In this document: piece by piece, positions 1 through 44,087 of the stretch
Numbering within the stretch: position 1 is the stretch's first letter
Layout of the letters: each line of letters begins with the position of its first letter
Source of the DNA: a virus
Length of the DNA stretch: 64,000 bases
Virus record (IMG/VR): IMGVR_UViG_3300035703_000080
Location: 3,850-67,849 of that record
Reading direction: 5' to 3' (one strand)
Made by a program: the position numbers and the translations under genes
The notes under the pieces: generated by a model
Database searches by the model: none
Told to the model about the DNA's origin: nothing
What the model saw: only the letters and a program-made list of their open reading frames with translations

Positions 1-3000
1 GTCGCCGTCGGTGTCGCGGCGGAAGCTCCCACGGAGGTCGTGCAGTCCGTGTTGGAGCGGTGGCAAGCAGGTCTGCCGCTGCTGGACGAGGATGCCCTCA
101 AGGAGTACGGTGAGAGCGCCTATGCCGGTGCGCTGGTGGGCGGACCCGTTGGTGCCGCAGGCCGTGCCTACGGACGCTCGGGCGCCCGGGCCGAGATCCG
201 TGAGCAAGAAGAAGCCGCTGCTGCCGAGCAGCGTCGGGCCGCAGCGCAGGCCGAGCAGGAGCAGCGCGAAGCGCCTGACTACATCCTGACGCTGAACGAC
301 GAGTACCAGAAGCTGCTGGCGCAAGAGAACGCGCTCAAGGCGCAGCGCAAGAAAGAAACCAAAGAAGCGCCGCTGACGCAAGAAGACAAAGACAACAACG
401 AGCTGATCAACCGACAGCTTGCCGAAATTAAGGACCCCCTTGCGCAAGCACGCAAAGCATTCAACGACGCAGGCGGCCCCCCGGCGCTGAAGAAGGTTCA
501 AGATGCACGGCGCACTGCGGCGCTCAGTCCGCAAGAAGCCTTCCTCGAAAGCCTCGGTGTTTCCGCAGCAAAGCCGACGCCTTCGGCAGAAGCAGCAAGC
601 ATAGAGGAAGCAGCGCTTGAGTCTGCGGCGGCGACCGCGCCTTCGGCGCTTCAGCGCTACGCACAAAACCGCATAAGCCTTGCAAACGAGCAGACGTTCG
701 GCACCGCTACTGCCAAAGACTACGTCGACTACCTGCTGGAGCGCCCATCTCTGGCACAAAAACTGGTAGACGAAAACCAACAGCTCCCCGGCATAGACAG
801 CAAAAAGCTGAGCAACAGCGTTTTGTCTGGGTTGCGGCTGGCGCTGGCTGAGCGCAAGAAGCAAGCAGCCAAAGGCAGGCCGCTTGAAGGAACGCCGCTG
901 TCACAGCTTGAAGCTGAAGAAGCTGCTGCACTGGAAGATGTATCCAGAGAAGAAGCTGCGCGTCTTGCAGAGACAGAAGAGCGGCGCAAACTCGGACCGG
1001 AACTGACGGCACTCCAGCGCATGCGTGCGCGGCGTTTGCCCGAGAGCGTGCGCGAAGAACCTTACATCGAGGCTGTTGCGGAGCGCGCCGCGCGTGCTGC
1101 GCCCGCACCGGAACCGCAGCCTTCTGCTGCTGTCGGACAGATGCAGCAGCTCCTCACGGGGCAAGACGTAACGTACACCGCAGAAGAGCCGAAAGCACGG
1201 CAACTGCGGCGTGTGCCGACGGAAGGGCTGACTCTTTTTGGAGAAAGCCAACGCGAGGCTGAAGCCGCCCCTGCCAAGACGCCCGATCCCAAGCAGCTTC
1301 GCGAGCGCATCAATCGTGCGCTGCTGAACCCGAACCTTTCCGACGAGGCTTACGACCTGTTGCGGCGGGCAGAAGACCTCATGCCCGACGTCGAGACGCG
1401 CATCGCTACGCGCAGGGCAACCGCCGAAGGGCGCACCCGGGAAGACGTCGCACAAACGGCGGGGTTGCTGGAGCTGCTGGATCAGCAGCTCACCCGTATT
1501 GAGCGTGGGCAGGAGGGTGTGCCGACAGCGGGACGCACGCTTGTCCAAGATGCGGCGCGCCGACCTGCATTGGGCGCAAGCGTTGTTTCGCCGTCCGAGG
1601 CGACGAAGGATGATATTCGCCTGCGGCGGCAGCAGACGTATGCGGACCTTGTAGCGCAAGGTTTTTCTCCTGGGGCAGCGGCCAAGCGTGCTTTCCAAAT
1701 CGGCAAGCCTACGGCGCAAGCGCAAGAAGGCGCGCTGACGCGCTTCGACGTTCCGCAGCAACCTCAACGCCCCGAAGCGCAGGCCGAAGTCACACGCAAG
1801 GTGCCCGGGCGCATCACACCGATGGAGCCCCGCGCTGCCCGAGAAATGGCTCCGGGACCGGAGGCTGCGCGTCAGCCTGGGCGGCAGTTGGCGCAAGAAC
1901 CGCGTCGAGGCACTATCCGGGGACGCGGCGCGCCGCTGTCACTGGCCGCAGAGATTGAGCCCTTGTTGCAGATGCAGGAGCGTGCGCGGGCCGAAGACGC
2001 GGGGCAGCAGGTGCTGTTTCCTGAGCTGGAGCGCGAGCGCGGCACCATTGCATCTACGCCGGAAGCATTCCGTCGACGGCTCGACCGCTTGAAGGCGGTG
2101 AAGGACGGCTACGCACGAGAACTGTTGCGCAAAGAAGCGGCGGTGCAGCCGCTTGAACAAGAGATCCGAGAACTCGGAGCGACGTTGGACGAGTACCAAC
2201 GACAGCAAAAAGCGTTGCAAGACGCGCAGTTTGTTTTGCGAAATAACGAGGCGCTGCTCAAAGAGCTGCGCGTGACCGGTGCCGGTACTGAAAAACTCAG
2301 CGGCGGTATCGGTGCGCTTACGGTAAGCGAGAACACGTTTCAGCAAGCAGCAGACGCCTTGAACAGACAGCGGGTGTTGCTACTCAACTACGCAGAACAA
2401 CGGCGGCGTGAAAAGGAAGCTGCGCCAAAGCTCAAAACAAAAGACTTTGCAGAAATCAGCAAGTTGCTTGAAGTGCAAGCCAGCGACGACGCGCGGTTGG
2501 CCAATGCACTGGCTTCTATCGAAGCCGAAGTTGAGCGCATAAACGCGTTCGAGAAAGACGTCTACAAGCAGTTTCCGCTAATTGAGCGCGCAAAGGAAGC
2601 CGCGCGGGAGCGCATGCGTGACCTGCACCGCCGCTACGGTACCGCGTCCGAGTTTTTAGACGGTCTCAAAACACTGCGCGGAAAGATTGACCGGCAGTTG
2701 CAGACGGCAAAAGACAGCTATCGCAAAGACCCGTACAACGAAGAACTGCGAGAGCTTGTTTTTGAGCTTTTCCAGCAAACGCGCGAGATCGATTCACGGA
2801 TCGACCGCAACAAAAAGCTGATGAGCAAGATCTCTGCACAGGTAGATGTCGCTGTCGCAGAGGCCAACATCAATCGCCTGAAGGCTGAAGCTCCGGCAGG
2901 TGCGGTAAAAAAGGCGGCAGACGCGCTGGCGGACGCAAAGCGGCGCTTGCAAACGCTGCGCTCCGATCTTGCCAAAGCACAACCGAAACCCGCAGCAACA

Positions 3001-6000
3001 CCTGTCGAAGAAAAGGAAAGGCCTGCGTCTGCGGTTGCGGAAGGGCCGTTGCAAGAAGTCATTTCTTACTCGGCCAATCTGAACAGGCATCAGCGCATGT
3101 TGGAGGCCATGCAGTTGCGTACGAAGACCGGCACTATTGTTCCGGCACTTTCCTACGCGCAACGGCTTGCCCGAGAGTCAGGCGCAGAAGTCAAGTTCTC
3201 TGTAGACGACCTTGCGCTGCTGGACAAAGACCCCAAGCGTGTGCTTAACGGGCTTGTCAGTCGTGCAACGGATCTCGAGAACAAGATCAAAAAAGCGGTG
3301 GCTAACTCGCGCGGGGCGGTGCTGCGCGGCGAAGTAGAACTGATCAACCGTTACAAGCAACTGGTGCAGGACTACGAAAACGCAGAGTCCTCGTTGGAGC
3401 GTTCGCAGATCGAGCCGGAACTGGACCTAGTTGCCAAAGAGTACAGCACCGCGCTCAATGAGTCTTTGGCCAAGCGCGTTGTTTGGAAAGGCCAAAAGCG
3501 AGATACGGCAGAGCTGCTCAATCTCTACCAAAAAATTGCCTATCTCGAAGAGCGGTTCTTCTTGCCGCAGGCGGCGGAAAAACGCACGTACCGCCCCGAG
3601 ACAGAAGCGGAGATCGCGGAGCGCGAGCGCGAAGCTGCGGCCATTTTCGAGTCTCAGCGCGAAGCGCAAGCCGGTGCGGGCACGACTTCTGGCGAAGCCC
3701 TCACGCGTTCGCAAGTTGCAAAGCGCCGCAAAGCGCAAAAAACGCTGTACAGCAGCAAGGGTGTTACGGCCCAAGAAGAGCTGTCCAACGAGGCGCTCAT
3801 CGAAAACGCCAAGGCCTACGCAACGGCGCAGGAAGTTGCGTTGTTGCGCAGCGCGCTTGAAAAACGAGATCGCCTTGAGCCGCTGACGGATCTTGAGCAG
3901 TTTGCGTACAACAGCGCCGTAGAAGCAAACCGCCCCAGCTTTGCGGACTTCGAGCCTCTGGCGGACGTCGTGCAAAAAGAGCGCAAGGGTACGCGCAAGC
4001 GCGGCGCGGCGTTGTCAGAGGAAGGCGCACTTTCTGAAGAAGCGCTGGATGTTATTGCCGAAGGGCGCGACATCGAAGAGGAAGTAAAGGCAGAAGAAGC
4101 CGCAGAGAAAGAATTTGAGCAGCGTGTCATGTACAGCGAGAGCGCTGCTACAGAAGCACCGCCAGAAAAGAAGAGTGTTGGTCGAGGCTTCTCTAAGAAA
4201 GAGATGCAAAAAGCCAACGAAATTTCTAGACTTTTCCGCGAGATCAAAGATGCGGAAGCAGAGTTGCAGGCAGAGGCGCAGAAGAGCCTAGAAAACAAAA
4301 CGCTTCTTGCAGACCGCAAACCCCTGCTGGACCGCCGCAAAAAAGTCGAAGCGTTGCGCAGCGAGCTTCAGCGATTGCTGAAGAAGGAAAAAACGGTTGC
4401 CGACGACGACGAAGGGGGTGTTGAGCTGTCGCGCGGTGCAACCGCCACGCCGTCCACTACCGCCACGGTCCGCGCGGAGTTGGGCAAAATGTTCCCTGAC
4501 CTCGGTCGGGTGCAGATCTACGACTCGGTTGACGCGCTCGTCCAGGCCAACCCGCAGTACAAGGGGCGCATCCCGGCGGATGCGCGGGGCTTCGTGGACT
4601 CGGCAGGCAACAAGGCCTTCCTGATCGCGGAGAACATCGACCAGGGCCGTGCGTTGGGCGTGCTGCTGCACGAGGTTGGTTCGCACATCGGCCTGAAGAA
4701 CACGCTTGGTGAGGCCCAGTACAACGCGTTGGTCAAGGCAGTGCAGACGTGGGCCAAGAAGACCGACGGCAGCACCGAGGCCAAGGTCGCCCAGGCGGCG
4801 CTGGCGCGTGTGGAGGCGGCGCAGACACCGGCCAGCCAGCGGGCAGACGAGACGCTGGCCTACGCCATCGAGGAAGCGGTCAACGCAGGCGTCAAGCCGA
4901 TGGAGACCAAGAGCGTCCTGGGGCAGTGGCTCAGCCGCGTCGCCCAGCTCTTCCGCCGTGCACTGGAGAAGTTCGGCCTGCCGCCCAAGGCGCTCGATGC
5001 GCAAGGGCTCGTGGACATGGCGTTCGGTGCGGCCAAGATGGAGATGCGCGGCATGCGCCCGGAGGGCGCTGTGCCGAAACGCGGCGAGCTGCTTTTCTCC
5101 CGCAAGACCGACTACGCCCCCGGACTCGCCGCCGCAGGCAAAGTCTCGGAGCAGCTTGTCGGAGGCCAACGCTCGTTCGTCGACAAAGTCAAGGCCAACC
5201 TGCTGGGCTTCCGCGCGCAGGTGGTAGACAAGCTCGCGCCGCTGGAGAAGGTCGCCTACGCCAACATGGACGACATGAAGGCGGCGCAGTTGATGTTCTA
5301 CATGCGCATGTACGACCAGCGCAACCACTTCACGTCGGAGTCGCTGGCCACCGGGGTGCCGGAACGCAAGGAGATCGTTCGCGCAGACGGGCGTAAGGAG
5401 TTCGTCATCGAGTCCAAGCCCGGTGCGAACATCAAGCAGATCGTCGACAGGCTGAGCACCAAAGCCGTCGTCAAGGAAGCAGGCAGCGTCGACGCGGCCA
5501 ACAGGCTGTTCACGCTCTACACCGCCGCCAAGCGTGCGGATCGTGTGGGCTACCAGAAGCTCGGGTTTGGCCGCGCCGCCGCCGAGGCAGAGCTGCGCCA
5601 GATCGATGCCGATCTGCGCTCGCCTACGCTGGACCCCAACGACCGCAAGCGCCTGCTCCAGCGCAAGGACTACTTGGAGAAGAACGCCGCCCAGATGCCG
5701 AGCGAAGCCGACATCCGCGCCGCCGTCAAGGAGATCGAGGCCAACACGACTCTGCGCGATGCGTTCAAGGATGCGCGGGAGATGTACAACGAATACAACC
5801 GCAACCTGCTCAACTTCGCCGTGCAGGCGGGCACTATCTCTGACGCCGAGGCCAAGCGCCTGCTTGCGGCCAAGGACTACGTCCCGTACTACCGTGTGCG
5901 CGGCGGCAACGCCGAGCTGGTGATCGGCGGCGAGAACCCCATCCGCATCGGCAACCTGAAGGACAACCCGCAGCTCGAAGAGCTGGTCGGCGGCGAAGAA

Positions 6001-7821
6001 CCCATCTTCGACTTCCTCACCAGCAGCGTGCAGAACACCTCGATGCTGCTCGACATGTCCCTGCGCAACTTGGCGGTGAAGAACGCCATGCACGAGCTGC
6101 GCGACGTCGGGCTGGCCAAGGTGTACTCGGAGCGCAACGAGAAGGGCAAGCGCCGCTCGGTGCCTGACAACGCCGTGAAGTTCCGCGTCAAGGGCGAGGA
6201 CTGGTTCGCCATCGTCAACACCGACGCCGCTGGCGTGCCCTCTGATCTACTGGTCAAGGGTCTGGCGGGCATCCCGACGATGCTCCCGGCAGTGGTGCGG
6301 ATGATGGCGGTCCCGGCGCGCATCCTGCGCCGCGCCATCGTGGCGTCCCCTGTCTACGTCGCCCGACAAGTCGTGCGGGACTCGGTGTCCGCTGCGCTTG
6401 CCAGCGGGGCCAACATGACGCCGATACTGAGCAGCCTGCGCAAGATCCGCAAGAAGGGCGCGCTCGACGCGCGGGGCGTCACGGGCGGGCAGGTGTTCAC
6501 CGGCATGCCTGAGGACATGGCGCGGTTGCTGCGCGAGATGCAGACCGGCAGGCCTGGGTGGGCCAAGGCGTGGAGCATGATGGAGCGCGTCGCGATGGAG
6601 GCGGATGCCACCACTCGCCGCGCCCAGTACGACAGCTACCGGGAGCAGGGGCTGTCCGAGATGGAGGCAACGCTGGCGTCGCTGGAGTCGATGAACTTCA
6701 GCAGGCGCGGGCTGTCTCCGTCGGTGCACTTCGCCAACGCCGTCATCCCGTTCTTCAACGCGCAGATCCAAGGCCTGGACGTGCTGTACCGCTCGCTGCG
6801 CGGGCAGATGCCGTTCGACAAGCGCCTGGACATCCGCAACAAGCTGCTCACGCGCGGCGCGCTGCTGGCCGGTATGTCGCTGGCTTACGCCGCGTCCATG
6901 CAGGACGAGGAGGAGTACAAGAACGCCCGCCCCGACGAGAAGTACGGGAACTGGTTCGTGCGCATGCCGTTCTTGGACGAGTACGCCGACGAGCCGGTGG
7001 TCGTGCGCGTGCCGATCCCGTTCGAGCTGGGCTACATCTTCAAGTCGCTGCCTGAGGCGCTCGTCAACACGATGGCGTCCGAGGAAGGCGGCAAGGAGGC
7101 GCTGCAAGCGCTGAAGCAGATCGCGATCAACACGATCCCAGGCGGCTCGTCTTACGGCATCCCTGCTGCGGCCAAGCCGCTCATTGAGGTCGGCTTGGGC
7201 CGGTCGTTCTTCACCGGGCGCGACATCGAGTCGATGCAGGAGCAGCAGCGCGAGCCTGGGGAGCGGTTCCGCGACGGCACCTCTGAGGTGGCCAAGGCCA
7301 TTGGCCAGACCTTCAACGTCTCGCCCATCAAGCTGGAGTACCTGCTCCGGGGCTACACCGGTAGCCTGGGCGTGGCGCTGGTGCAGTCGCTGAACTTCCT
7401 CACGCCTGCCCCCGAGGGTTCGGAGAAAGCGCTCAAGCGCCTGTCTGAGCTGCCTGTGGTCGGCACCGTGTTCCAGCCGATGGACGCCGGAGGCATCATC
7501 GACGCCGCCTACGCCCGGGTCAACGAGATCCGCCAAGCGCAGGAGACCCACGAGAACATGATCACCACCGGACGCACGGCGGATGCCCAGGCGTATCTGG
7601 AGCGCAAGGCTGATGAACTGGCGCTGGCGTCGGTGGCCGGTGATTTTCGCAAGCGCATGGGGGACGTGACGAAGGCCGAGCGGGCCATCCGCGACGCGCC
7701 GTCACTGTCCGCGCAGGAGAAGCGCGAGCGGCTCAACGAGCTGCGTCAGGTGAAGCTCCAAATCGCCTCCGCAGCTCGGGCGATTTTCGATAGAAAAACA
7801 CCCCAAGCCGCCCCTGCTTGA
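1..7821 (+). CDS. Giant internal virion/ejection protein (>2600 aa, 5' truncated) with C-terminal LPD38-like region
   Basis: Frame is open from base 1. Long Ala/Glu-rich helical region, an HExxH-like motif (LLHEVGSHIGL), and a C-terminus (IPFELGYIFKSLPE, GRSFFTGRDIE) resembling large polyvalent protein domain 38 of podovirus ejection proteins. Confidence 0.75.
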   Translation, partial: VAVGVAAEAPTEVVQSVLERWQAGLPLLDEDALKEYGESAYAGALVGGPVGAAGRAYGRSGARAEIREQEEAAAAEQRRAAAQAEQEQREAPDYILTLNDEYQKLLAQENALKAQRKKETKEAPLTQEDKDNNELINRQLAEIKDPLAQARKAFNDAGGPPALKKVQDARRTAALSPQEAFLESLGVSAAKPTPSAEAASIEEAALESAAATAPSALQRYAQNRISLANEQTFGTATAKDYVDYLLERPSLAQKLVDENQQLPGIDSKKLSNSVLSGLRLALAERKKQAAKGRPLEGTPLSQLEAEEAAALEDVSREEAARLAETEERRKLGPELTALQRMRARRLPESVREEPYIEAVAERAARAAPAPEPQPSAAVGQMQQLLTGQDVTYTAEEPKARQLRRVPTEGLTLFGESQREAEAAPAKTPDPKQLRERINRALLNPNLSDEAYDLLRRAEDLMPDVETRIATRRATAEGRTREDVAQTAGLLELLDQQLTRIERGQEGVPTAGRTLVQDAARRPALGASVVSPSEATKDDIRLRRQQTYADLVAQGFSPGAAAKRAFQIGKPTAQAQEGALTRFDVPQQPQRPEAQAEVTRKVPGRITPMEPRAAREMAPGPEAARQPGRQLAQEPRRGTIRGRGAPLSLAAEIEPLLQMQERARAEDAGQQVLFPELERERGTIASTPEAFRRRLDRLKAVKDGYARELLRKEAAVQPLEQEIRELGATLDEYQRQQKALQDAQFVLRNNEALLKELRVTGAGTEKLSGGIGALTVSENTFQQAADALNRQRVLLLNYAEQRRREKEAAPKLKTKDFAEISKLLEVQASDDARLANALASIEAEVERINAFEKDVYKQFPLIERAKEAARERMRDLHRRYGTASEFLDGLKTLRGKIDRQLQTAKDSYRKDPYNEELRELVFELFQQTREIDSRIDRNKKLMSKISAQVDVAVAEANINRLKAEAPAGAVKKAADALADAKRRLQTLRSDLAKAQPKPAATPVEEKERPASAVAEGPLQEVISYSANLNRHQRMLEAMQLRTKTGTIVPALSYAQRLARESGAEVKFSVDDLALLDKDPKRVLNGLVSRATDLENKIKKAVANSRGAVLRGEVELINRYKQLVQDYENAESSLERSQIEPELDLVAKEYSTALNESLAKRVVWKGQKRDTAELLNLYQKIAYLEERFFLPQAAEKRTYRPETEAEIAEREREAAAIFESQREAQAGAGTTSGEALTRSQVAKRRKAQKTLYSSKGVTAQEELSNEALIENAKAYATAQEVALLRSALEKRDRLEPLTDLEQFAYNSAVEANRPSFADFEPLADVVQKERKGTRKRGAALSEEGALSEEALDVIAEGRDIEEEVKAEEAAEKEFEQRVMYSESAATEAPPEKKSVGRGFSKKEMQKANEISRLFREIKDAEAELQAEAQKSLENKTLLADRKPLLDRRKKVEALRSELQRLLKKEKTVADDDEGGVELSRGATATPSTTATVRAELGKMFPDLGRVQIYDSVDALVQANPQYKGRIPADARGFVDSAGNKAFLIAENIDQGRALGVLLHEVGSHIGLKNTLGEAQYNALVKAVQTWAKKTDGSTEAKVAQAALARVEAAQTPASQRADETLAYAIEEAVNAGVKPMETKSVLGQWLSRVAQLFRRALEKFGLPPKALDAQGLVDMAFGAAKMEMRGMRPEGAVPKRGELLFSRKTDYAPGLAAAGKVSEQLVGGQRSFVDKVKANLLGFRAQVVDKLAPLEKVAYANMDDMKAAQLMFYMRMYDQRNHFTSESLATGVPERKEIVRADGRKEFVIESKPGANIKQIVDRLSTKAVVKEAGSVDAANRLFTLYTAAKRADRVGYQKLGFGRAAAEAELRQIDADLRSPTLDPNDRKRLLQRKDYLEKNAAQMPSEADIRAAVKEIEANTTLRDAFKDAREMYNEYNRNLLNFAVQAGTISDAEAKRLLAAKDYVPYYRVRGGNAELVIGGENPIRIGNLKDNPQLEELVGGEEPIFDFLTSSVQNTSMLLDMSLRNLAVKNAMHELRDVGLAKVYSERNEKGKRRSVPDNAVKFRVKGEDWFAIVNTDAAGVPSDLLVKGLAGIPTMLPAVVRMMAVPARILRRAIVASPVYVARQVVRDSVSAALASGANMTPILSSLRKIRKKGALDARGVTGGQVFTGMPEDMARLLREMQTGRPGWAKAWSMMERVAMEADATTRRAQYDSYREQGLSEMEATLASLESMNFSRRGLSPSVHFANAVIPFFNAQIQGLDVLYRSLRGQMPFDKRLDIRNKLLTRGALLAGMSLAYAASMQDEEEYKNARPDEKYGNWFVRMPFLDEYADEPVVVRVPIPFELGYIFKSLPEALVNTMASEEGGKEALQALKQIAINTIPGGSSYGIPAAAKPLIEVGLGRSFFTGRDIESMQEQQREPGERFRDGTSEVAKAIGQTFNVSPIKLEYLLRGYTGSLGVALVQSLNFLTPAPEGSEKALKRLSELPVVGTVFQPMDAGGIIDAAYARVNEIRQAQETHENMITTGRTADAQAYLERKADELALASVAGDFRKRMGDVTKAERAIRDAPSLSAQEKRERLNELRQVKLQIASAARAIFDRKTPQAAPA

Positions 7822-16542: not shown

Positions 16543-16738
16543 ACAGTGCTTTCTCCTTTTCGTCCATCAACTTGAGCACATGCTGAAGCATGCGCGCTTC
16601 TGCCCCGAGTTCAATCGCCGCGTCTCGGGCTTCTGAGTACCTGTGCTCTAGGCACAGGTCGTGTGTGCGCTTGAGCATCTGCTCCATGCGAATCATGGGC
16701 GCGGCGTAATCAACGATGTCAGTCTTTTGCAAGTCCAT
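16454..16738 (-). CDS. Hypothetical protein (MDLQKTDIVDYA...)
   Basis: Overlaps the polymerase stop; its C-terminal part overlaps the next gene and may be a spurious extension. Confidence 0.55.
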   Translation of the reverse strand: MDLQKTDIVDYAAPMIRMEQMLKRTHDLCLEHRYSEARDAAIELGAEARMLQHVLKLMDEKEKALYADTKANQGRQEAVHHQPARQAEEAIHGW

Positions 16739-19598
16739 AGCGTTTGTGCACGCCCCCGCTTGCCGATAGCGGAATCCCCGGCAAGTATGGAGGCTCAATA
16801 GTCATCTGCGCCAAGACCCATGTCTTGGCGTCATCCGCTTCGCTCTCCGGCGCGACTGCGATGGCCTCGTCATGCACCGTGCCCGCCACAGGGTAGCGTT
16901 TGTCGATGCGTAGCATGCCGTCGGTCATCACGATCCGTGCGGTGCCTTGGACACAGTTGTGTACTATGAAAGGGCCTGTGGCTCCTTTGACAACGAATCT
17001 GTTTCTCGGGCCACAGTTGACAATATCGTACACCTGTTGCTGAACGAGGGCGGCAGCGTCAGCAGTTCCACGGGCCAGCCCGATTTGAGTCGGTTGTACA
17101 ACGTAGTTCTCCCTATGCCCGTAGCCGCGCTTAGCGCAGGTACGTCTACCGCCCGAACTGTTGTGCGTTTGTTCATAGAATTCGTCTGCCGAGACACCCA
17201 CCGACAGTTCTCCGGCGAGTACGGGCCGTTGTTGTCCATACGATCCAAGTCCAAGCCTCGCGCATACGTAGCGCCCATGTCTTCCCAAAAAGCCGCGAAG
17301 CTGTTGCGCCATCTCTCGCAAACGTACACCCCCCTTGCGCCATAGTTTTTGTACGCTGCTTCCGCCTTGCTGTAACACCGCGCATGCATGTTGCGCCAAA
17401 CGATATAGGCGGGGTGCCGGCTCATACCGTGCGTGGTGTTCTTCTCCCCTATCAGCCGCCGCGTCATACAACCGCAGTTCGGAATCCCCCCGCGTTTGGT
17501 TTCTTTCGTTACGTCTGCGCCGAGCTTCACTGTCTGCGCACCGCATTCGCAGCGGAAGCGCCATTTCCACGACTTCCCGGTGGACGCCTCCGGGTGCAAC
17601 GCCGTCAACATGCCGAAGGTCTGGCCGGAAAGGTTCTTGAACTTGTGATGCGGCTTCCCATCCATGATCTGTGAGAACGAGGTGTTCCGGGGTAATGAGG
17701 ACGCCGTCCACGGTAACACAACCCTGAACTCCGGTCAAGATCTTCCCCGCATGCCGCACGAACTCCACCCCGTCGTGCACCAAGTCTTGCGGTTCGACGC
17801 TCTCTATGGGCACCCAGCCTCGCGCAGTAAGCACGGGCGTTCCTGCGGCCAAGCAGTTGTTGGTGATCTTCCCGGCGTACAGCTTCGACCGCTTCTTGCC
17901 GTCTGCGTACGTCCACTGGATGCGCCGCCCGTCGCCTTCGGGCTTGAGGTCAGGATACCGCAAGCTCATGCCGTTTGGCAAGACGATCTCCTCCTTGCGG
18001 AAGGTCAGGCACTTGTGGCGGTACTCGTTGCCCTTGAACAGGCTGTGGGTGATGAGGTTCTGGAAGAGTTCCCACAGACGCACGACGGGCTGCGCCGTGG
18101 CGCGGTACCGGGTGATGATGGCCTGAGCGGCGAGGCAGTGGATGAGCAGCTCCTGCGCCGTGCAGGAGTGCGGGATGGCCTCCATCGCCTTGACGAGATG
18201 CTCGGAGCCGATGAAGACGTCGACGTCGCGTGACGTCACGCCGAGCTGCCGCGCTTCTGCTTTTGTGTACCTTTTAGGTGGTGCACCGAGGAAACCCGTC
18301 AATAATTGTGCCGCGAAACTTGCCCACCCCAATTGGTACCCGCACCCAAGCAAAGCAGACTTTGCACTTTGTCTCTCCACCGGATGAGAGTCTTTAGTCA
18401 TACCGGGTATATTGAACATGCCCGCGCCGAATGTGGCGTAGGGGTCGCCGCCACCCTTGAAGATGTCGAGCAGCGTGCCGTAGTCGGCCAGCCACGCCAG
18501 CACGCGCGGCTCGATCTGGGACAGGTCTCCCACCACCAGCACGTGGCCCTCGGGGGCGGTGATGGCCTTGCGCAGGAAGCTCCCGCGCTTGAGGTTCTGG
18601 AGGTTGATCTGACTGCCCTTGCTGGCCGTGTACCGGCCCGTGGCGGCGCCGTAGTAGTTGACCGGGAAGGGCAGCGGCCCGCGCCGCGAGATGTCGAGGA
18701 ACCGTTGCGCACGGGTGCGCTGGAGCGTGGACTTGACCATCAGCCGCGCCTCGCACAGCAGGGCGACGGCCTCGTTGTCGGAGTTCATCATCGCCTGGAA
18801 CAGCGCGTCGTTCTTGGCGAACGCGAACGTCTTCTCCCCGGTGGTCTTGCTGACCTTCGTCGGCGGCTCGACGCCCATGCCCTCCAGCACGGCGGCGAAC
18901 TTGTCGTTGGACGCCAGCGCCGCCTCCTCCACGCCCAGGCGTGTGAGCAGCTCCTCCCGTGCTTGGCGCTCTTCCTCGATGGCGGGCTCCAGCATCGCCC
19001 CGTCCAGCACCAGCAGCGGGCGCGTGTACATGCGCAGGGTCAGGTCGATCAGGCGCAGCTCCTTGGACGGGTACCCGGGCAGCATGCGTAGGAAGATCTG
19101 CTCGCACAGCCACGTGTCGTGCTTGCAGTAGTCGGCCAGCGTCTGCTCGACGTCGAAGGGCAGCTCGTCGAGGATGTTCTCGGACGGGCTGAGCCCGTCT
19201 CCCTTGGGCGGCAGACCGTAGCGCTCGGCCAGCACCTTCAGGCTGTTGCCCACCTCGACGCCGTGCAGGGCGCGGCCCATGCTGAGCGTGTCGAACATGA
19301 AGCACGGCTGCACGCCGTAGTGCCACGACAGGATGCTGCCGTCGAACTGGGTGTTCTGGCAGACGAGCGCGGTACGCGTCCAGTCGATGCTGTCCGCCCA
19401 GTCTTGGATGCCGTTGCGGCGGACCCAGACGGCCTTGTTGTCCGTCCCGACCTCCTTCCACGACAGGCCCCACGCCTTGAAGCGCGGGTCGCGCAGGTAC
19501 TCCTCGTTGGTCTGGCACGAGAACCCGAGCTTGACCTCGCGCCCCCAGGACGTCTCGAAGTCCACCGCCAGTATGCGGTCGAATGGCGGCTTGCTCAA
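16719..19598 (-). CDS. polA: Family A DNA polymerase with 3'-5' exonuclease, containing an intein
   Basis: Exonuclease motifs DFET, NTQFD, YCKHD; motif A DLSQIEPR, motif B RQSAKSALLGCGY, motif C TVHDEA. Confidence 0.95.
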   Translation of the reverse strand: MSKPPFDRILAVDFETSWGREVKLGFSCQTNEEYLRDPRFKAWGLSWKEVGTDNKAVWVRRNGIQDWADSIDWTRTALVCQNTQFDGSILSWHYGVQPCFMFDTLSMGRALHGVEVGNSLKVLAERYGLPPKGDGLSPSENILDELPFDVEQTLADYCKHDTWLCEQIFLRMLPGYPSKELRLIDLTLRMYTRPLLVLDGAMLEPAIEEERQAREELLTRLGVEEAALASNDKFAAVLEGMGVEPPTKVSKTTGEKTFAFAKNDALFQAMMNSDNEAVALLCEARLMVKSTLQRTRAQRFLDISRRGPLPFPVNYYGAATGRYTASKGSQINLQNLKRGSFLRKAITAPEGHVLVVGDLSQIEPRVLAWLADYGTLLDIFKGGGDPYATFGAGMFNIPGMTKDSHPVERQSAKSALLGCGYQLGWASFAAQLLTGFLGAPPKRYTKAEARQLGVTSRDVDVFIGSEHLVKAMEAIPHSCTAQELLIHCLAAQAIITRYRATAQPVVRLWELFQNLITHSLFKGNEYRHKCLTFRKEEIVLPNGMSLRYPDLKPEGDGRRIQWTYADGKKRSKLYAGKITNNCLAAGTPVLTARGWVPIESVEPQDLVHDGVEFVRHAGKILTGVQGCVTVDGVLITPEHLVLTDHGWEAASQVQEPFRPDLRHVDGVAPGGVHREVVEMALPLRMRCADSEARRRRNERNQTRGDSELRLYDAAADRGEEHHARYEPAPRLYRLAQHACAVLQQGGSSVQKLWRKGGVRLREMAQQLRGFLGRHGRYVCARLGLGSYGQQRPVLAGELSVGVSADEFYEQTHNSSGGRRTCAKRGYGHRENYVVQPTQIGLARGTADAAALVQQQVYDIVNCGPRNRFVVKGATGPFIVHNCVQGTARIVMTDGMLRIDKRYPVAGTVHDEAIAVAPESEADDAKTWVLAQMTIEPPYLPGIPLSASGGVHKRYGLAKD
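16956..17855 (-). mobile_element. Intein (300 aa) in DNA polymerase
   Basis: CLAAGTPVLTARGWVPIE, block B ITPEHLVLTDHGW, VYDIVNCGPRNRFVV...FIVHN, Cys +1. Removing it restores KITNNCVQGTAR. Confidence 0.95.
16964..17665 (-). CDS. HNH homing endonuclease nested in the +1 frame of the polymerase intein
   Basis: NLSGQTFGMLT, WRFRCECG, NCGC, THGMS, WRNMHARC, YGARGVYVCERW, LDRMDNNGPYSPENCRW and a C-terminal HTH (GIGRTTLYNRLKSGW). Collinear with the free-standing HNH at 46517-47116. Confidence 0.9.
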   Translation of the reverse strand: MDGKPHHKFKNLSGQTFGMLTALHPEASTGKSWKWRFRCECGAQTVKLGADVTKETKRGGIPNCGCMTRRLIGEKNTTHGMSRHPAYIVWRNMHARCYSKAEAAYKNYGARGVYVCERWRNSFAAFWEDMGATYARGLDLDRMDNNGPYSPENCRWVSRQTNSMNKRTTVRAVDVPALSAATGIGRTTLYNRLKSGWPVELLTLPPSFSNRCTILSTVARETDSLSKEPQALS

Positions 19599-19891
19599 TG
19601 CACTTCTCCGTTTTGCGCAGCGGTGGCGGCGTCTTGTTGGAACGAGTCCAGAAACGAGTCATGCGCTGTGCGCAACAGCACGAGCACGTCGAGGTGCGAG
19701 GCGTTGACGCCGTGAACGCGCAGCGTCTCCTCGTCCTCCGTCCAGACGAAAACCCCGTGGCTGCGCGGGGAAGTGAAGCACGTGAGCAGCGACGTCATCG
19801 TGTCCAGCAGTGCCGTGCGTACCTCCGGGTCAAGACTGTTGGCCTTCAAGAGGAGTTGCTTGGCGTTATTCAGTAGGGTTTCAGTGTCCAT
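19595..19891 (-). CDS. Hypothetical protein (98 aa)
   Basis: Overlaps both neighbours; SD AGGAG. Confidence 0.65.
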   Translation of the reverse strand: MDTETLLNNAKQLLLKANSLDPEVRTALLDTMTSLLTCFTSPRSHGVFVWTEDEETLRVHGVNASHLDVLVLLRTAHDSFLDSFQQDAATAAQNGEVH

Positions 19892-20183
19892 GTTTGATGC
19901 TCCTGAGCGTGTCGATGAGTAAGTTGATCGTGTCTTCGCGCACGACTAGCGTTGTGCCCCCTGCTGCGGATATGGCTGCAAGCTCTTTGTCTTGCAGCGC
20001 GGTTGTCTTGTTGAAGCCCGCTTTGCACTCGATGCCGATGAACTTGCCGTTGAGGCATGCGATGATGTCCGGGACGCCCGAGCGTCCGTAACCGCCCATG
20101 ACGGGGAAGAAATGATATGCGCCGTATGTCTTCAACACAGCAACGCACATGTCCTTGACGATTTTCTCTGGTGTCTTTGCCAT
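19881..20183 (-). CDS. VRR-NUC domain nuclease (possible resolvase)
   Basis: GVPDIIAC...FIGIECKA...TALQ...AAGG pattern. Confidence 0.85.
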   Translation of the reverse strand: MAKTPEKIVKDMCVAVLKTYGAYHFFPVMGGYGRSGVPDIIACLNGKFIGIECKAGFNKTTALQDKELAAISAAGGTTLVVREDTINLLIDTLRSIKHGH

Positions 20184-20200
20184 TTAGTTTCCTTGTTGGG

Positions 20201-20366
20201 CGGGGGAGGAGACGCACATTCCCAGCCTCCCCCGACTTCTGGGTATGAAAGCCACTTAGGCTCTCTCGCGCCAACGAGAGCGGTTCGCCATAAGTGCGGC
20301 GACAGGTTCGCATGTGCGATGCATACTACTGCCTCCGTGGAGCCCAACCCCTGACCGCTACGGGGC
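20201..20366 (-). ncRNA. Candidate structured ncRNA, copy 1
   Basis: Intergenic; five or six helices shared with copy 2, with compensatory changes. Strand inferred from operon direction only. Confidence 0.6.
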
Positions 20367-20379
20367 TGATGTGTTTGGT

Positions 20380-20545
20380 AGGGGAGGAAACGCACATTCC
20401 CAGCCTCCCCTGATCTCTGGGTGATCGGATCACCACGGCTTTCTCGCTGGCAGACGAGAACGGTTCGCCGTAAGTACTGTACGCAGCGCTACATGTGCGA
20501 GGTGTTGTCTGCATACAGGTATCTGTCCCTGACCGTTACGGGACG
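20380..20545 (-). ncRNA. Candidate structured ncRNA, copy 2
   Basis: Diverged tandem paralogue of 20201-20366 that keeps all pairings. Confidence 0.6.
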
Positions 20546-20742
20546 GAGTAGCTTGATTGTATCTGTTTACCACCGCGCTGCTTCGCTGTTGATCAGTTCT
20601 ATTTTGGCCTGCTTGGCGAACCACCGTGCGACCAGTACGCGCTCCGCGTCGGTCTTGAAGGGCCACGCCCAGCGGGCGAGCGTCAGTCCTGATGGGTGCA
20701 TCATTCACACCACAACAAGAGGACCAATGTACCAACGATGTT

Positions 20743-20778
20743 GGCGATGGCGATGGCGATGGCGATGGCGATGGCGAT
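20743..20778. repeat. (GGCGAT)6 tandem repeat
   Basis: Six perfect hexamers; on the minus strand they encode (IA)6 in a short hydrophobic ORF starting at 20790. Confidence 0.9.
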
Positions 20779-20786
20779 GAGTTCGA

Positions 20787-21068
20787 TCATGGTTTGTCCT
20801 TCGTTGGTGGGTTCCAGATCCATATGACAGCCTTGGCTTCTGTCTTCCCGCACTTGCATAGCAGGCCTTCATCTTCCAGAGCCTTGCGCCAGCGGTAGAC
20901 CGTGCCTCTGTCGAGCCCGGTCAGCGCGGTCAGTTCGTCAATGGTTCTCGGAGCCTTGACCCACAGGGCCAGCATGTCGGCGCATTTCTTGATGTTATCA
21001 GTTCTTGGCACCTTCTCTCCTTTGAATTTCTCTGTCGATATACCACCGGGCCTTCTTGAGATCCTCAA
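20787..21068 (-). CDS. Winged-HTH-like protein (true start probably downstream of 21068)
   Basis: TIDELTALTGLDRGTVYRWRKALEDEGLL. Confidence 0.65.
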   Translation of the reverse strand: MRISRRPGGISTEKFKGEKVPRTDNIKKCADMLALWVKAPRTIDELTALTGLDRGTVYRWRKALEDEGLLCKCGKTEAKAVIWIWNPPTKDKP

Positions 21069-43123: not shown

Positions 43124-44035
43124 ATGGCAATTTCTCGCGCACAACTTCTCAAGGAGCTGCTCCCCGGCCTGAACGCCCTGTTCGGCATGGAGTACAAGCG
43201 CTACGGCGAAGAGCACAAGGAGATCTACGAAACGGAGACCTCCGACCGCTCGTTCGAGGAAGAGACCAAGCTCGCTGGTTTCTCCGCCGCTCCGGTGAAA
43301 AACGAAGGACAGGCCATCGCGTACGACAACGCGCAGGAAGCCTGGACCGCTCGTTACAACCACGAGACCATCGCTATGGGCTTCTCCATCACCGAAGAGG
43401 CGATGGAAGACAACCTGTACGACAGTCTGTCGGCGCGGTACACCAAGGCTCTGGCTCGGGCGATGTCCTACACCAAGCAGGTCAAGGCCGCTGCGATCCT
43501 GAACAACGGCTTCAACAGCTCGGTCACCTACGGTGATGGGCAGTCGCTGTTCTCGACCGCGCACCCGCTGGTCTCTGGGGGCACCAACAGCAACCGTCCT
43601 GCGACGGCGGCTGACCTCAACGAGACCTCGCTGGAGAACGCGGTGATCCAGATCGCTGCGTGGACGGACGAGAAGGGCCTCCTGATCGCCGCCAAGCCGC
43701 GCAAGCTCATCGTGCCCCCGGCCCTGATGTTCGTCGCAACCCGTCTGCTGGAGACCAACCTCCGCGTGGGCACCAACGACAACGACCTCAACGCGCTGAA
43801 GAACAACGGTGCCATCCCGGAAGGGTACACCGTCAACCACTTCCTGACCGACAACAACGCTTGGTTCCTCAAGACCGACGTTCCCAACGGTCTGAAGCAC
43901 TTCGTGCGCGTGGCCATGTCGACGTCGATGGACGCCGACTTCGATACCGGCAACAGCCGGTACAAGGCGCGTGAGAGGTATTCGTTTGGCGTGTCGGATG
44001 CTTTGGGAGTGTACGGCTCCCCCGGCGCAAGCTGA
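43124..44035 (+). CDS. Major capsid protein
   Basis: MAISRAQLLKELLPGLNALFG...KLIVPPAL...RYKARERYSFG; strong codon bias; followed by a terminator. Confidence 0.9.
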   Translation: MAISRAQLLKELLPGLNALFGMEYKRYGEEHKEIYETETSDRSFEEETKLAGFSAAPVKNEGQAIAYDNAQEAWTARYNHETIAMGFSITEEAMEDNLYDSLSARYTKALARAMSYTKQVKAAAILNNGFNSSVTYGDGQSLFSTAHPLVSGGTNSNRPATAADLNETSLENAVIQIAAWTDEKGLLIAAKPRKLIVPPALMFVATRLLETNLRVGTNDNDLNALKNNGAIPEGYTVNHFLTDNNAWFLKTDVPNGLKHFVRVAMSTSMDADFDTGNSRYKARERYSFGVSDALGVYGSPGAS

Positions 44036-44087
44036 GCCAGAACAAACCCCGCACGCCTCTCAACGATGCGCACCAGCGGGGTTCCTC

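Follow-up and report, generated by a model that had tools for sequence, protein, structure and literature searches.

A tandem repeat ahead of a replication gene block

The DNA analysed here (the window) is a 64-kb stretch from an uncultured phage of ~68 kb. Between a small conserved ORF and a gene block encoding a VRR-NUC-like protein and DNA polymerase A, it carries a direct repeat in which blocks of 51, 34 and 21 nt, 79-86% identical, recur 178-180 nt apart. Primase, helicase and polymerase genes adjoin the repeat. The immediate features, in plus-strand numbering, are the following:

20194..20365, minus strand: copy 1, the 3'-proximal RNA copy (from the match to covariance model R1 and helix coordinates)
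20372..20544, minus strand: copy 2, the 5'-distal RNA copy (from the match to R1 and helix coordinates)
19881..20183, minus strand: downstream gene, a 100-aa VRR-NUC/Hjc-like endonuclease (phrog_93 endonuclease, E 1.6e-14)
20567..20704, minus strand: upstream gene, a conserved small protein of 45 aa with a W-P-F motif (from homologous ORFs)

The downstream protein additionally gives a weak Pfam Hjc match (E 0.004, below the cut-off), and copy 1 ends 10 nt ahead of the ATG of its gene. When the two copies are aligned, mean column identity is 81%, with variable linkers between the conserved parts. Such a two-copy repeat, together with the helices described below, is more than chance. A covariance model (CM R1) constructed from 22 sequences of other phages, from which those of the window's lineage had been excluded, finds copy 1 at 20194-20362 with 52.8 bits (E 1.9e-12, model positions 1-165) and copy 2 at 20372-20541 with 47.9 bits (E 3.7e-11). 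Over the entire 64 kb, these two full-length matches, both on the minus strand, are the only ones.

The region 20194-20544 almost certainly comprises two tandem copies of an RNA of ~165-170 nt, which belongs to an uncatalogued family and is read from the minus strand, as are all the genes around it. The strand is indicated by the non-canonical cells in helices B, D, E and F, where G.U outnumbers A.C by 44 to 3, and by a U.G pair in hairpin P2 that is conserved in 18 of 22 sequences. In terms of minimum free energy the region does not stand out (z-scores of -0.47 and -1.39 on the minus strand, -0.44 and -1.00 on the plus strand). This is to be expected, because minimum-free-energy folding cannot model pseudoknots.

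Fold and covariation among homologues

The RNA folds into four successive hairpins (C, P2, D and E) combined with three long-range helices that all cross one another. In helix a:a' the 5' tail pairs with the D loop; in b:b' the P2 loop pairs with the strand that immediately follows hairpin E on its 3' side; and in f:f' the E loop is bound by the 3' tail, so that pseudoknots tie down both ends of the element. In the window, these parts lie as follows:

20202..20233, minus strand: copy 1, core of the 3' H-type pseudoknot (f 20226-33, e' 20221-25, b' 20213-19, f' 20202-09)
20239-43, minus strand: copy 1, strand e, the partner of e'
20253..20296, minus strand: copy 1, hairpin D (outer stem 20287-96 with 20253-61)
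20263-78, minus strand: copy 1, inner hairpin of D, lineage-specific
20279-84, minus strand: copy 1, strand a' in the internal loop of D
20301..20333, minus strand: copy 1, hairpin P2 (20329-33 with 20301-05, from RNAalifold on the MAFFT alignment)
20312-18, minus strand: copy 1, strand b in the P2 loop, pairing with b' 20213-19
20348..20365, minus strand: copy 1, 5' hairpin A (20362-65 with 20348-51), which presents strand a
20354-59, minus strand: copy 1, strand a, pairing with a'
20380..20421, minus strand: copy 2, core of the 3' pseudoknot (f' 20380-87, b' 20391-97, e' 20399-403, f 20404-11, e 20417-21)
20434..20544, minus strand: copy 2, upstream part (helix coordinates, partly converted by hand)
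20467-72 with 20434-39, minus strand: copy 2, hairpin D, with a' at 20459-64
20509-14 with 20481-86, minus strand: copy 2, hairpin P2, with b at 20493-99
20515-26, minus strand: copy 2, hairpin C
20540-44 with 20525-29, minus strand: copy 2, hairpin A, with strand a at 20532-37
20184..20201, minus strand: A/C-rich linker between the end of f' and the start codon at 20181-83
20190-94, minus strand: AAGGA, a Shine-Dalgarno-like word inside the linker

Covariation of these helices was followed through 62 distinct homologues. Among the 47 proposed pairs, 91.8% of cells are paired, against 75.9-79.9% after shuffling (none of 500 shuffles reaches the observed value) and 36-49% when partners are slid. 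Both sides change at 27 of the 47 pairs in the MAFFT alignment (A3) and at 33 in the alignment made with the CM (A5). Helices B, E and F are paired at 100%, 100% and 99.8% in the 62 sequences and contain four, two and four covarying pairs, respectively. Helix D shows double changes at nine of its ten pairs in the MAFFT alignment, and P2 is 93.8% paired in A3; in copy 2 of the window P2 has a U.G pair where lineage L009 has U-A. Hairpin C is poorly supported (65-75% paired). About a dozen nucleotides are near-invariant and unpaired. Strand f is a purine run and f' a pyrimidine run throughout, and the five inner pairs between them are never flipped in polarity.

The least well aligned helix is a:a', with 77.5-84.2% of cells paired. 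Its strands nevertheless change in step (AGCGGU:ACCGCU in copy 1, AACGGU:ACCGUU in copy 2 and GACGAU:AUCGUC in lineage L007), and each of the 39 distinct a strands found family-wide comes with a matching a'. An alignment-free comparison gave a mean of 20.8 for matched and 14.9 for mismatched strands, with 27 of 63 above the 95th percentile, a number kept low by the G/C-rich cores that lineages share. Because this statistic is weak, support for a:a' rests on the 39 matched strands and the pairing percentage.

The 3' pseudoknot has stems of 5 bp and 7-8 bp without a base between them, which can stack to 12-13 bp, and its third loop is itself engaged in a 7-bp helix with the P2 loop. A short tail follows, with A in 57 of 62 sequences, C in 51 of 62, then C (42 of 62) or U (20 of 62) and a variable fourth base; CCA itself is not conserved.

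Some further candidates were tried and rejected. For a fourth long-range helix, linking the conserved stretch upstream of b with loop 1 of the 3' pseudoknot, the paired fraction of loop 1 was 0.76 in matched and 0.72 in mismatched lineages over 27 combinations. The conserved GGUUCUA was considered as a T-loop; RNAalifold instead assigns it to hairpin P2, as the 5' strand. Nor is a leader peptide conserved that would begin at the AUG within b' of the window copies, since other lineages have AUC or AUA at this site.

The tandem ~165-nt multi-pseudoknot elements proposed in a preliminary description of this locus are confirmed by the CM from other phages and by the covariation. The segments it named do lie at the plus-strand positions given: CGGGGGAGG at 20201 and CCTCCCCCG at 20226, AGGGGAGG at 20380 and CCTCCCCT at 20404, CCCAG and CTGGG at 20221/20239 and 20399/20417, CGCACAT and ATGTGCG at 20213/20312 and 20391/20493, AGCGGT and ACCGCT at 20279/20354, AACGGT and ACCGTT at 20459/20532, as well as the inner and terminal hairpins. 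The RNA itself corresponds to the minus strand, so its words are the reverse complements of these. One further helix, P2, is missing from its list for both copies. The reading as a complex non-coding phage RNA agrees both with the pairing of 92% of cells and with the reading frames, the best of which stays open in 14 of 61 homologues on the sense strand and in 10 of 61 on the antisense strand. A switch had also been suggested at 20280/20460. The overlap of two helices at this base is real in the window copies, but in the nearest single-copy lineage (L007/L011) the helices merely abut, and a conserved switch is therefore not supported. Kept in about a hundred related sequences of uncultured phages, the element is a real functional RNA, for which the roles named in that description (ribozyme, riboswitch, sponge or oligomer) are candidates.

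Distribution and genomic context of the family

Besides this record, the family is present on 77 IMG/VR contigs and on 41 metagenome contigs, two tallies that are not independent, as many of the metagenome contigs probably duplicate IMG/VR ones. Pattern matches without a CM match (nine of 50 from metagenomes and six of 35 new viral ones) were counted as chance, and one partial match (L155) was excluded from per-sequence counts. None of about 185,000 prokaryote genomes contains the element. With the region as query, blastn found nothing in 50,697 GenBank phage records; tblastn with the VRR-NUC protein returned only relatives below 40% identity. No relative in culture came to light. The tandem pair, though real in the window, proved peculiar to its lineage, occurring in this record and in five of the 77 IMG/VR contigs; all five complete relatives have a single copy each.

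In most lineages, homologues of the W-P-F ORF end at or in the element, and the protein is also encoded in 15 of 26 element-less relatives. At 42 of 61 distinct loci (those with <130 nt upstream being excluded), an ORF of at least 40 codons terminates within strand a, a pattern that involves no fewer than four unrelated upstream genes and each of the three stop codons. The window lineage differs, its upstream ORF ending 33 nt ahead of strand a. On the other side, the next start codon follows f' at a median distance of 21 nt (range 12-66 nt). Family-wide, the intervening linkers are composed of 42% A, 34% C, 12% U and 13% G, and a 4-nt Shine-Dalgarno core occurs in 29 of 55 distinct linkers, the other 26 having none. 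The downstream gene may encode VRR-NUC, DUF3310, DUF6378, an NrdR-like Zn-ribbon or one of several unknown proteins, which speaks against the earlier idea of a leader specific to the VRR-NUC/polymerase operon. The element is also optional, since three syntenic relatives (L027, L046 and L069) have tight or overlapping junctions in its place. These junctions were read directly; a gap scan for a replacement element, which had no positive control, yielded spurious ORFs everywhere in the GC-rich DNA.

No terminator-like or sigma-70-like site was found at the element on the minus strand, and there is no room for a promoter or terminator on either side; together with the upstream stop codons inside strand a and the close downstream start codons, this makes the element part of a polycistronic mRNA. 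The tail was also considered as a promoter for a T7-like phage RNA polymerase; a search of the phage's own genome with Pfam PF00940 gave no match, but the control matched nowhere either. We do not call the phage N4-like, because its giant ORF (1-7821) matches only PHROGs of unknown function. In RNA libraries from two studies, the only sizeable contigs from a 2.5-kb stretch are of 153 nt (20204-20355, copy 1) and 158 nt (20364-20507, copy 2), although these are assembled contigs of depth about 4 with ends and strand not readable, from runs chosen for words of the element's kilobase. Runs X17 and X18, labelled RNA-Seq but probably DNA, were excluded as expression evidence, and for X19 and X20 the uncovered parts of the stretch are not evidence of absence.

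Rfam 15 (4227 models) has no match in window positions 19900-20900 at E<=10 and, at E<=1, none on the element when seven diverse homologous loci are searched, consistent with the earlier failure to assign a known family. Models of known self-cleaving ribozymes (hammerhead, twister, twister-sister, pistol, hatchet, HDV-like, glmS, hairpin and VS) do not match, nor do the Rfam xrRNA models match on the element, and ARAGORN reports 0 tRNA or tmRNA genes over the window. ToxI-like type III antitoxins are arrays of tandem repeats of about 35-45 nt beside an endoRNase toxin gene; here, in contrast, the unit measures 178-180 nt, is mostly single-copy and has nuclease, DUF3310 and Zn-ribbon genes as neighbours instead of a ToxN-like one. 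Elsewhere in the window, at 44047-44082, an abiF RNA is the sole Rfam match at gathering score.

Possible functions and relation to known systems

We tentatively favour, at a probability of about 0.4, the view that the element is an intercistronic RNA-processing or insulating module. Its compact knotted fold would direct a site-specific cut, either by self-cleavage or by a structure-specific host RNase such as RNase P; alternatively, the fold would stop exonucleases and 5'-end-dependent decay. The upstream early-gene mRNA and the downstream replication-gene mRNA would then have separate fates, while the element itself would survive as a stable RNA of ~165 nt. Being optional, variably flanked and occasionally duplicated is typical of phage processing elements and small ribozymes. 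The element, optional between syntenic genes, with varying flanks, single in the complete relatives, tandem in this lineage and absent from about 185,000 prokaryote genomes, follows this pattern, and the element-sized RNA contigs hint, if faintly, at a stable RNA. According to PMC12710915, bacterial RNase P cleaves a small H-type pseudoknot with a 3' RCCA. By analogy, a coaxial pseudoknot of 5 bp and 7-8 bp followed by A-C-C/U makes the RNase P route plausible. On the other hand, the invariant unpaired nucleotides and three pseudoknots exceed the needs of a simple nuclease roadblock and would suit a ligand- or protein-binding RNA equally well. The tail without a conserved CCA, the unremarkable free-energy z-scores and the lack of similarity to ribozyme or xrRNA models also count against a processing module.

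Those invariant nucleotides are what would be expected if the element were a riboswitch, that is, an aptamer for a small molecule, such as a nucleotide-related signal, controlling downstream replication genes. Like a riboswitch, the element has a conserved, complex pseudoknotted fold and occupies a 5' leader position, with replication- or nucleotide-related neighbours (DUF3310, VRR-NUC, DNA polymerase A). Some known riboswitches also occur in tandem, as do the window's copies. In some members f' could even pair with a downstream AGGA or GGAG word once the pseudoknot opens. We nevertheless regard a riboswitch as unlikely: no expression platform is recognisable, with no terminator after the element and an unstructured, A/C-rich linker of 12-66 nt. 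Just over half of the distinct linkers have a Shine-Dalgarno core, the distance to the start codon varies, the class of downstream gene is not constant, and syntenic relatives manage without the element.

The accessory-like presence and absence in syntenic relatives, together with the tandem in one lineage, would also suit a stable trans-acting RNA freed from the mRNA and serving as a decoy or sponge for a host protein, with duplication raising its dose. Possibly such a decoy would be a tRNA-like mimic directed against RNase P, the CCA-adding enzyme, an anticodon- or acceptor-end nuclease or another defence factor. The element sits among early/middle genes and is restricted to contigs of lytic-type phages, pseudoknots lock both its ends, and the element-only contigs in two RNA libraries point, if weakly, in the same direction. 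The stacked 3' pseudoknot with its A-C-C/U tail has the topology of the acceptor arms of plant-virus tRNA-like structures, although ARAGORN recognises no tRNA or tmRNA and CCA is not conserved. Moreover, the element lies flush between ORFs without a promoter or terminator of its own, so that its release would need processing, and it has no strictly co-occurring partner protein, the W-P-F protein being found also at element-less loci. A decoy is thus improbable in our judgement.

Still less probable is a role in translation, in which the element would keep or boost expression of the downstream cistron across the 165-nt spacer, through termination-reinitiation coupling or IRES-like recruitment, relying on purine run f, which resembles a Shine-Dalgarno sequence, and on the linker, A/C-rich and unstructured. 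The stop codon within strand a, from which it follows that a terminating ribosome must melt a:a', would fit such coupling, as would the overlap of stop and start in element-less relatives. Yet stop-codon overlap is equally expected from simple genome compaction, and in the window lineage, with its stop ahead of strand a and its tandem copies, coupling or an IRES would make no sense. The unflipped purine/pyrimidine polarity of f and f', the G-poor linkers, nearly half of them without a Shine-Dalgarno core, and the intergenic three-pseudoknot layout of ~165 nt, reminiscent of the dicistrovirus IGR IRES, are in its favour; the start codon, however, is at no fixed distance from the fold.

Covariation by itself cannot separate RNA from a same-sense strand of ssDNA folding during replication or transcription, for instance as a priming or origin signal. 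The adjacent primase, helicase and polymerase genes and the small number of G.U cells (44 of 1754 in B, D, E and F) are compatible with such a signal. We consider it very unlikely, since three interleaved pseudoknots and a conserved U.G pair are typical of RNA and unlike ssDNA signals, an origin would not be optional in syntenic relatives, and element-only contigs occur, as weak evidence, in RNA libraries. A chance repeat is refuted by the detection of both copies at E of about 1e-11 to 1e-12, and an unrecognised small protein-coding gene can be dismissed as well, since, for all the mechanical minus-strand ORFs of 62-147 aa that span the region, 14 of 61 homologues at most keep any one anchored frame open, and the helix substitutions are compensatory rather than of period three.

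There is a real, if minority, chance that the element represents a new class of functional RNA with a tertiary fold of its own, three of its hairpin loops each being held by a strand from far away: a novel self-cleaving ribozyme, a novel riboswitch, or the first nuclease-resistant or tRNA-like decoy RNA from a DNA phage. In the last case, the RNA would partition or protect the replication-gene mRNA or disarm a host factor. RNAs that combine, in about 165 nt, four hairpins and three interleaved pseudoknots with a dozen unpaired bases that do not vary are rare, and bacterial and phage RNAs of comparable complexity are usually ribozymes, riboswitches or parts of RNA-protein machines. The covariation is unusually clean over about a hundred environmental phage sequences of a family absent from Rfam. 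The element stands at the boundary between early and replication genes in a widespread group of freshwater and subsurface phages without a cultured member. Being small and clearly delimited, it lends itself to structural work and to assays of cleavage, ligand binding and nuclease action, and could reveal the ways in which lytic phages handle lengthy polycistronic mRNAs or disturb RNA enzymes of the host. Even as a stabiliser only, it would, going by the literature searched, have no described pseudoknot-based predecessor in a DNA phage.

Among described RNAs, the 8,495 unnamed candidate structured RNAs, averaging 67 nt, that PMC10690425 derived from IMG/VR share with the element their intergenic source and the evidence from covariation; its main text, as covered by term search, mentions no motif near VRR-NUC or DNA polymerase, while its supplementary list may number part of the element. 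The dicistrovirus IGR IRES is likewise intergenic, about 150-190 nt long and built of three pseudoknots (PMC8002689, PMC12221177 and PMC10516663). It differs in belonging to eukaryotic RNA viruses, in helix order and in giving no sequence or model match, and the tandem copies and variable start-codon distance of the element do not fit an IRES.

The xrRNAs of flaviviruses and plant viruses are a class described in PMC11702639. They are compact, form pseudoknots between a tail and a hairpin loop, often come in tandem pairs and leave a stable RNA; the element shows both the tail-to-loop pseudoknots and the tandem pair. Yet xrRNAs measure about 45-75 nt, belong to the 3' UTRs of RNA viruses that infect eukaryotes and stop Xrn1 from degrading RNA in the 5'-3' direction, whereas the element is intercistronic and comes from a DNA phage. 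In tRNA-like structures and RNase P substrates a coaxial helix of about 12 bp precedes a single-stranded N-CCA; the element may approach this layout with its H-type pseudoknot of 5 bp and 7-8 bp and its single-stranded A-C-C/U tail, although this tail is internal rather than a 3' end and CCA is not conserved.

Twister, pistol, hatchet and hammerhead ribozymes in phage DNA have pseudoknot-rich cores and are intergenic, on the gene-sense strand, patchy in distribution and occasionally tandem. The element is about twice the size of these small classes and gives no Rfam match at E<=10; the glmS ribozyme resembles it in size and number of pseudoknots. The RNase III signals of T7-like phages, irregular hairpins of ~60 nt without pseudoknots that are cut by the host enzyme, are comparable in context: they too are structured, optional, variably flanked parts of polycistronic early/middle mRNAs of lytic phages, where they set the stability of mRNA segments. 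The element differs from them in its length of ~165 nt, its four hairpins with three long-range helices that cross, and its many unpaired bases that do not vary.

Locus and tandem copies

The region 20184-20566 is the sole sizeable non-coding gap within a run of minus-strand genes. The gap and its neighbours comprise:

20567-20704, minus strand: W-P-F small-protein ORF, 45 aa, directly upstream of the gap
20372-20544, minus strand: element copy 2 (5'-distal)
20194-20365, minus strand: element copy 1 (3'-proximal)
19881-20183, minus strand: VRR-NUC/Hjc-like endonuclease, 100 aa (phrog_93, E 1.6e-14), directly downstream of the gap
between the VRR-NUC-like and DNA polymerase genes, minus strand: 98-aa ORF
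16719-19598, minus strand: family-A DNA polymerase, 959 aa, after the 98-aa ORF

Within the gap lies a direct repeat (period 178-180 nt) whose copies share conserved blocks of 51, 34 and 21 nt (79-86% identity) joined by variable linkers. Every complementary word on which the preliminary description had based a tandem pair of pseudoknotted elements was found in its place.

Elsewhere in the window, a perfect array of the hexanucleotide TGGCGA (x 6.3, 20742-20779) falls within a short minus-strand ORF (20705-20872) and would be translated there as an Ile-Ala repeat. The sole Rfam match at gathering score is an abiF RNA motif (RF03085; 44047-44082, plus strand; 44.6 bits, cut-off 37), just 3' of ORF 43124-44035. 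A giant plus-strand ORF (1-7821), which runs in from beyond the start of the window and encodes at least 2,606 aa, matches solely PHROGs of unknown function (phrog_18222, phrog_9854); in size it is reminiscent of N4-like virion RNA polymerases.

Fold and covariation

Read in the gene sense, the element runs from strand a through hairpin C to the 5' strand of hairpin P2, strand b in the P2 loop and the P2 3' strand; then come the 5' strand of hairpin D, a' in the D loop, the D 3' strand and a short C/U-rich joiner, and finally e, loop 1, f, e', one invariant A, b', three bases, f' and an A/C-rich tail. The fold thus consists of four successive hairpins (C, P2, D and E) and three long-range helices (a:a', b:b' and f:f'), and because the latter cross one another, both ends of the element are pseudoknotted. 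At the 3' end, stems of 5 and 7-8 bp stack and are followed by A-C-C/U. P2 was missing from the initial structure model and was predicted by RNAalifold on a plain MAFFT alignment; this hairpin accounts for two blocks that had been taken for conserved single strands.

Pairing was assessed in two alignments: A3 (22 sequences, MAFFT, fitted to no structure) and A5 (62 distinct sequences, aligned with a covariance model, CM).

Pairing support in the two alignments
Measure; A3; A5
Cells pairing; 91.8%; 91.8%
Cells pairing, shuffled control; 79.9% (0/500 reach observed); 75.9%
Cells pairing, partners slid 1-3 columns; 37-48%; 38-48%
Pairs with both sides changed; 27/47; 33/47

Pairing stands at 99.8-100% in helices B, E and F, where 4, 2 and 4 positions covary, respectively. 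Helix D covaries in 9-10 of its 10 pairs, and P2 reaches 93.8% pairing in A3. Helix a:a', the most poorly aligned of all, is 77.5-84.2% paired, and each of the 39 distinct a strands seen has a matching a'. Support for hairpin C is weak. In helices B, D, E and F, 44 cells are G.U against 3 A.C, P2 retains a U.G pair in 18/22 sequences, and CM matches are confined to the gene-sense strand. The structured RNA family is real and well supported, and its fold is unusually intricate.

Some lineages depart from this plan. In the window's lineage, an extra 5' hairpin A displays strand a in its loop, and hairpin D contains an additional inner hairpin. A 6-bp hairpin in copy 2 (20434-20421 region, RNA GGUGAUCCGAUCACC), specific to this lineage, overlaps the D 3' strand and the start of e and gives an alternative local fold. 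In the L014/L015 lineage alone, a near-exact repeat of strand a lies on the 3' side of hairpin C (~2331-2365), and a' thus has two alternative partners.

Distribution and gene context

An exact 21-mer common to both window copies is present in six IMG/VR contigs, twice in five and once in the sixth. A scan with the VRR-NUC protein yielded 77 related loci, 40 of them with the element; of the 37 negative loci, at least 6 have less than 210 nt of upstream sequence and are therefore not assessable. A degenerate core pattern matched 48 IMG/VR contigs. When the 36 distinct sequences from pattern matches across all loci then gathered were parsed for helices a, b, D, e and f, the outcome for b, e and f was identical in 36/36, and the greedy search miscalled a or D in about 10, chiefly window-lineage copies. 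A looser pattern added 35 loci (29 CM-confirmed) and, in metagenomes, 50 contigs (41 CM-confirmed, 9 chance), with no match across ~185,000 prokaryote species at one genome per species. The covariance model R1, built from 22 sequences excluding the window lineage, recovered both window copies at full length (52.8 and 47.9 bits), solely on the minus strand, with no further match in the 64 kb. In five relatives that are complete or nearly so (61.6-67.2 kb) there is exactly one copy apiece; the tandem pair is restricted to the window's lineage.

In 42 of 61 distinct loci, an upstream ORF of at least 40 codons has its stop codon within strand a; the upstream genes concerned include four or more that are unrelated, and all three stop codons are represented. 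From f' to the next start codon the median distance is 21 nt. This linker is A/C-rich and G-poor, with a Shine-Dalgarno core in just 29 of 55 distinct linkers; at L064:2183-2216 it is doubled, as two copies of a ~20-nt A/C-rich unit. Since the upstream stop lies inside a and the next start comes so soon, there is no space for the element to have its own promoter or terminator, and a minus-strand search detected neither at the element, which is part of a polycistronic transcript. Its neighbours vary (NrdR-like Zn ribbon, W-P-F small protein, DUF3310, DUF6378, VRR-NUC and others). The W-P-F protein, with an invariant motif and no Pfam or PHROG family, lies directly 5' in most lineages (window 20567-20704, minus strand; L024:1841-2110; L031, L046 and others). 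Because gene junctions at this site are tight or overlapping in syntenic relatives that lack the element, and 15 of 26 element-less loci also have the W-P-F protein, the element is an optional module.

Two loci, L053 (~2409-2480) and L068 (~769-810), have a ~35-nt unit that includes a G/C hairpin inserted just 3' of the element, twice and once, respectively; each insertion repeats the last f' bases and an ACUAA tail, and the unit resembles a small insert, either mobile or prone to slippage.

Two metatranscriptomes, each from a separate study, gave sizeable contig matches on 2.5 kb at the element copies only: copy 1 is covered over 20204-20355 by a 153-nt contig, and most of copy 2 (20364-20507) by one of 158 nt. 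These assembled contigs (depth ~4, carrying neither strand nor end information, from runs selected by words of the same kilobase) faintly hint at a stable RNA.

Possible function and known RNAs

Family, fold, strand, co-transcription, optional presence and copy number are established, and the mechanism is inferred. We tentatively favour an intercistronic module for processing or insulation, at a probability of about 0.4, because both ends are locked, the element sits at the boundary of two gene blocks, its distribution is patchy and its flanking genes variable, a tandem pair exists, element-sized RNA is hinted at, and the 3' pseudoknot is followed by A-C-C/U, RCCA-bearing pseudoknots of that form being reported RNase P substrates (PMC12710915). 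However, the invariant unpaired bases would equally suit a ligand- or protein-binding RNA. A riboswitch, which would use such bases for its ligand and would here serve differing neighbours, seems unlikely. Similarly doubtful is a trans-acting decoy or tRNA-like RNA; the element is not a tRNA or tmRNA. A translation-coupling or IRES-like element has a low probability, and a same-sense signal in single-stranded DNA is very improbable. Chance or coding sequence can be dismissed. No reading frame is kept open across homologues (best frame, 14 of 61 sequences).

The preliminary observation is confirmed, and the core of its interpretation, a complex phage non-coding RNA outside known families, is borne out; none of the specific functions it offered is supported. 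No Rfam family matched the element in the window or at seven diverse homologous loci, the region resembles no GenBank phage, and literature searches returned no description. As far as checked, the element was uncatalogued before, although it may be a numbered entry in a catalogue of 8,495 unnamed candidate RNAs from IMG/VR (PMC10690425).
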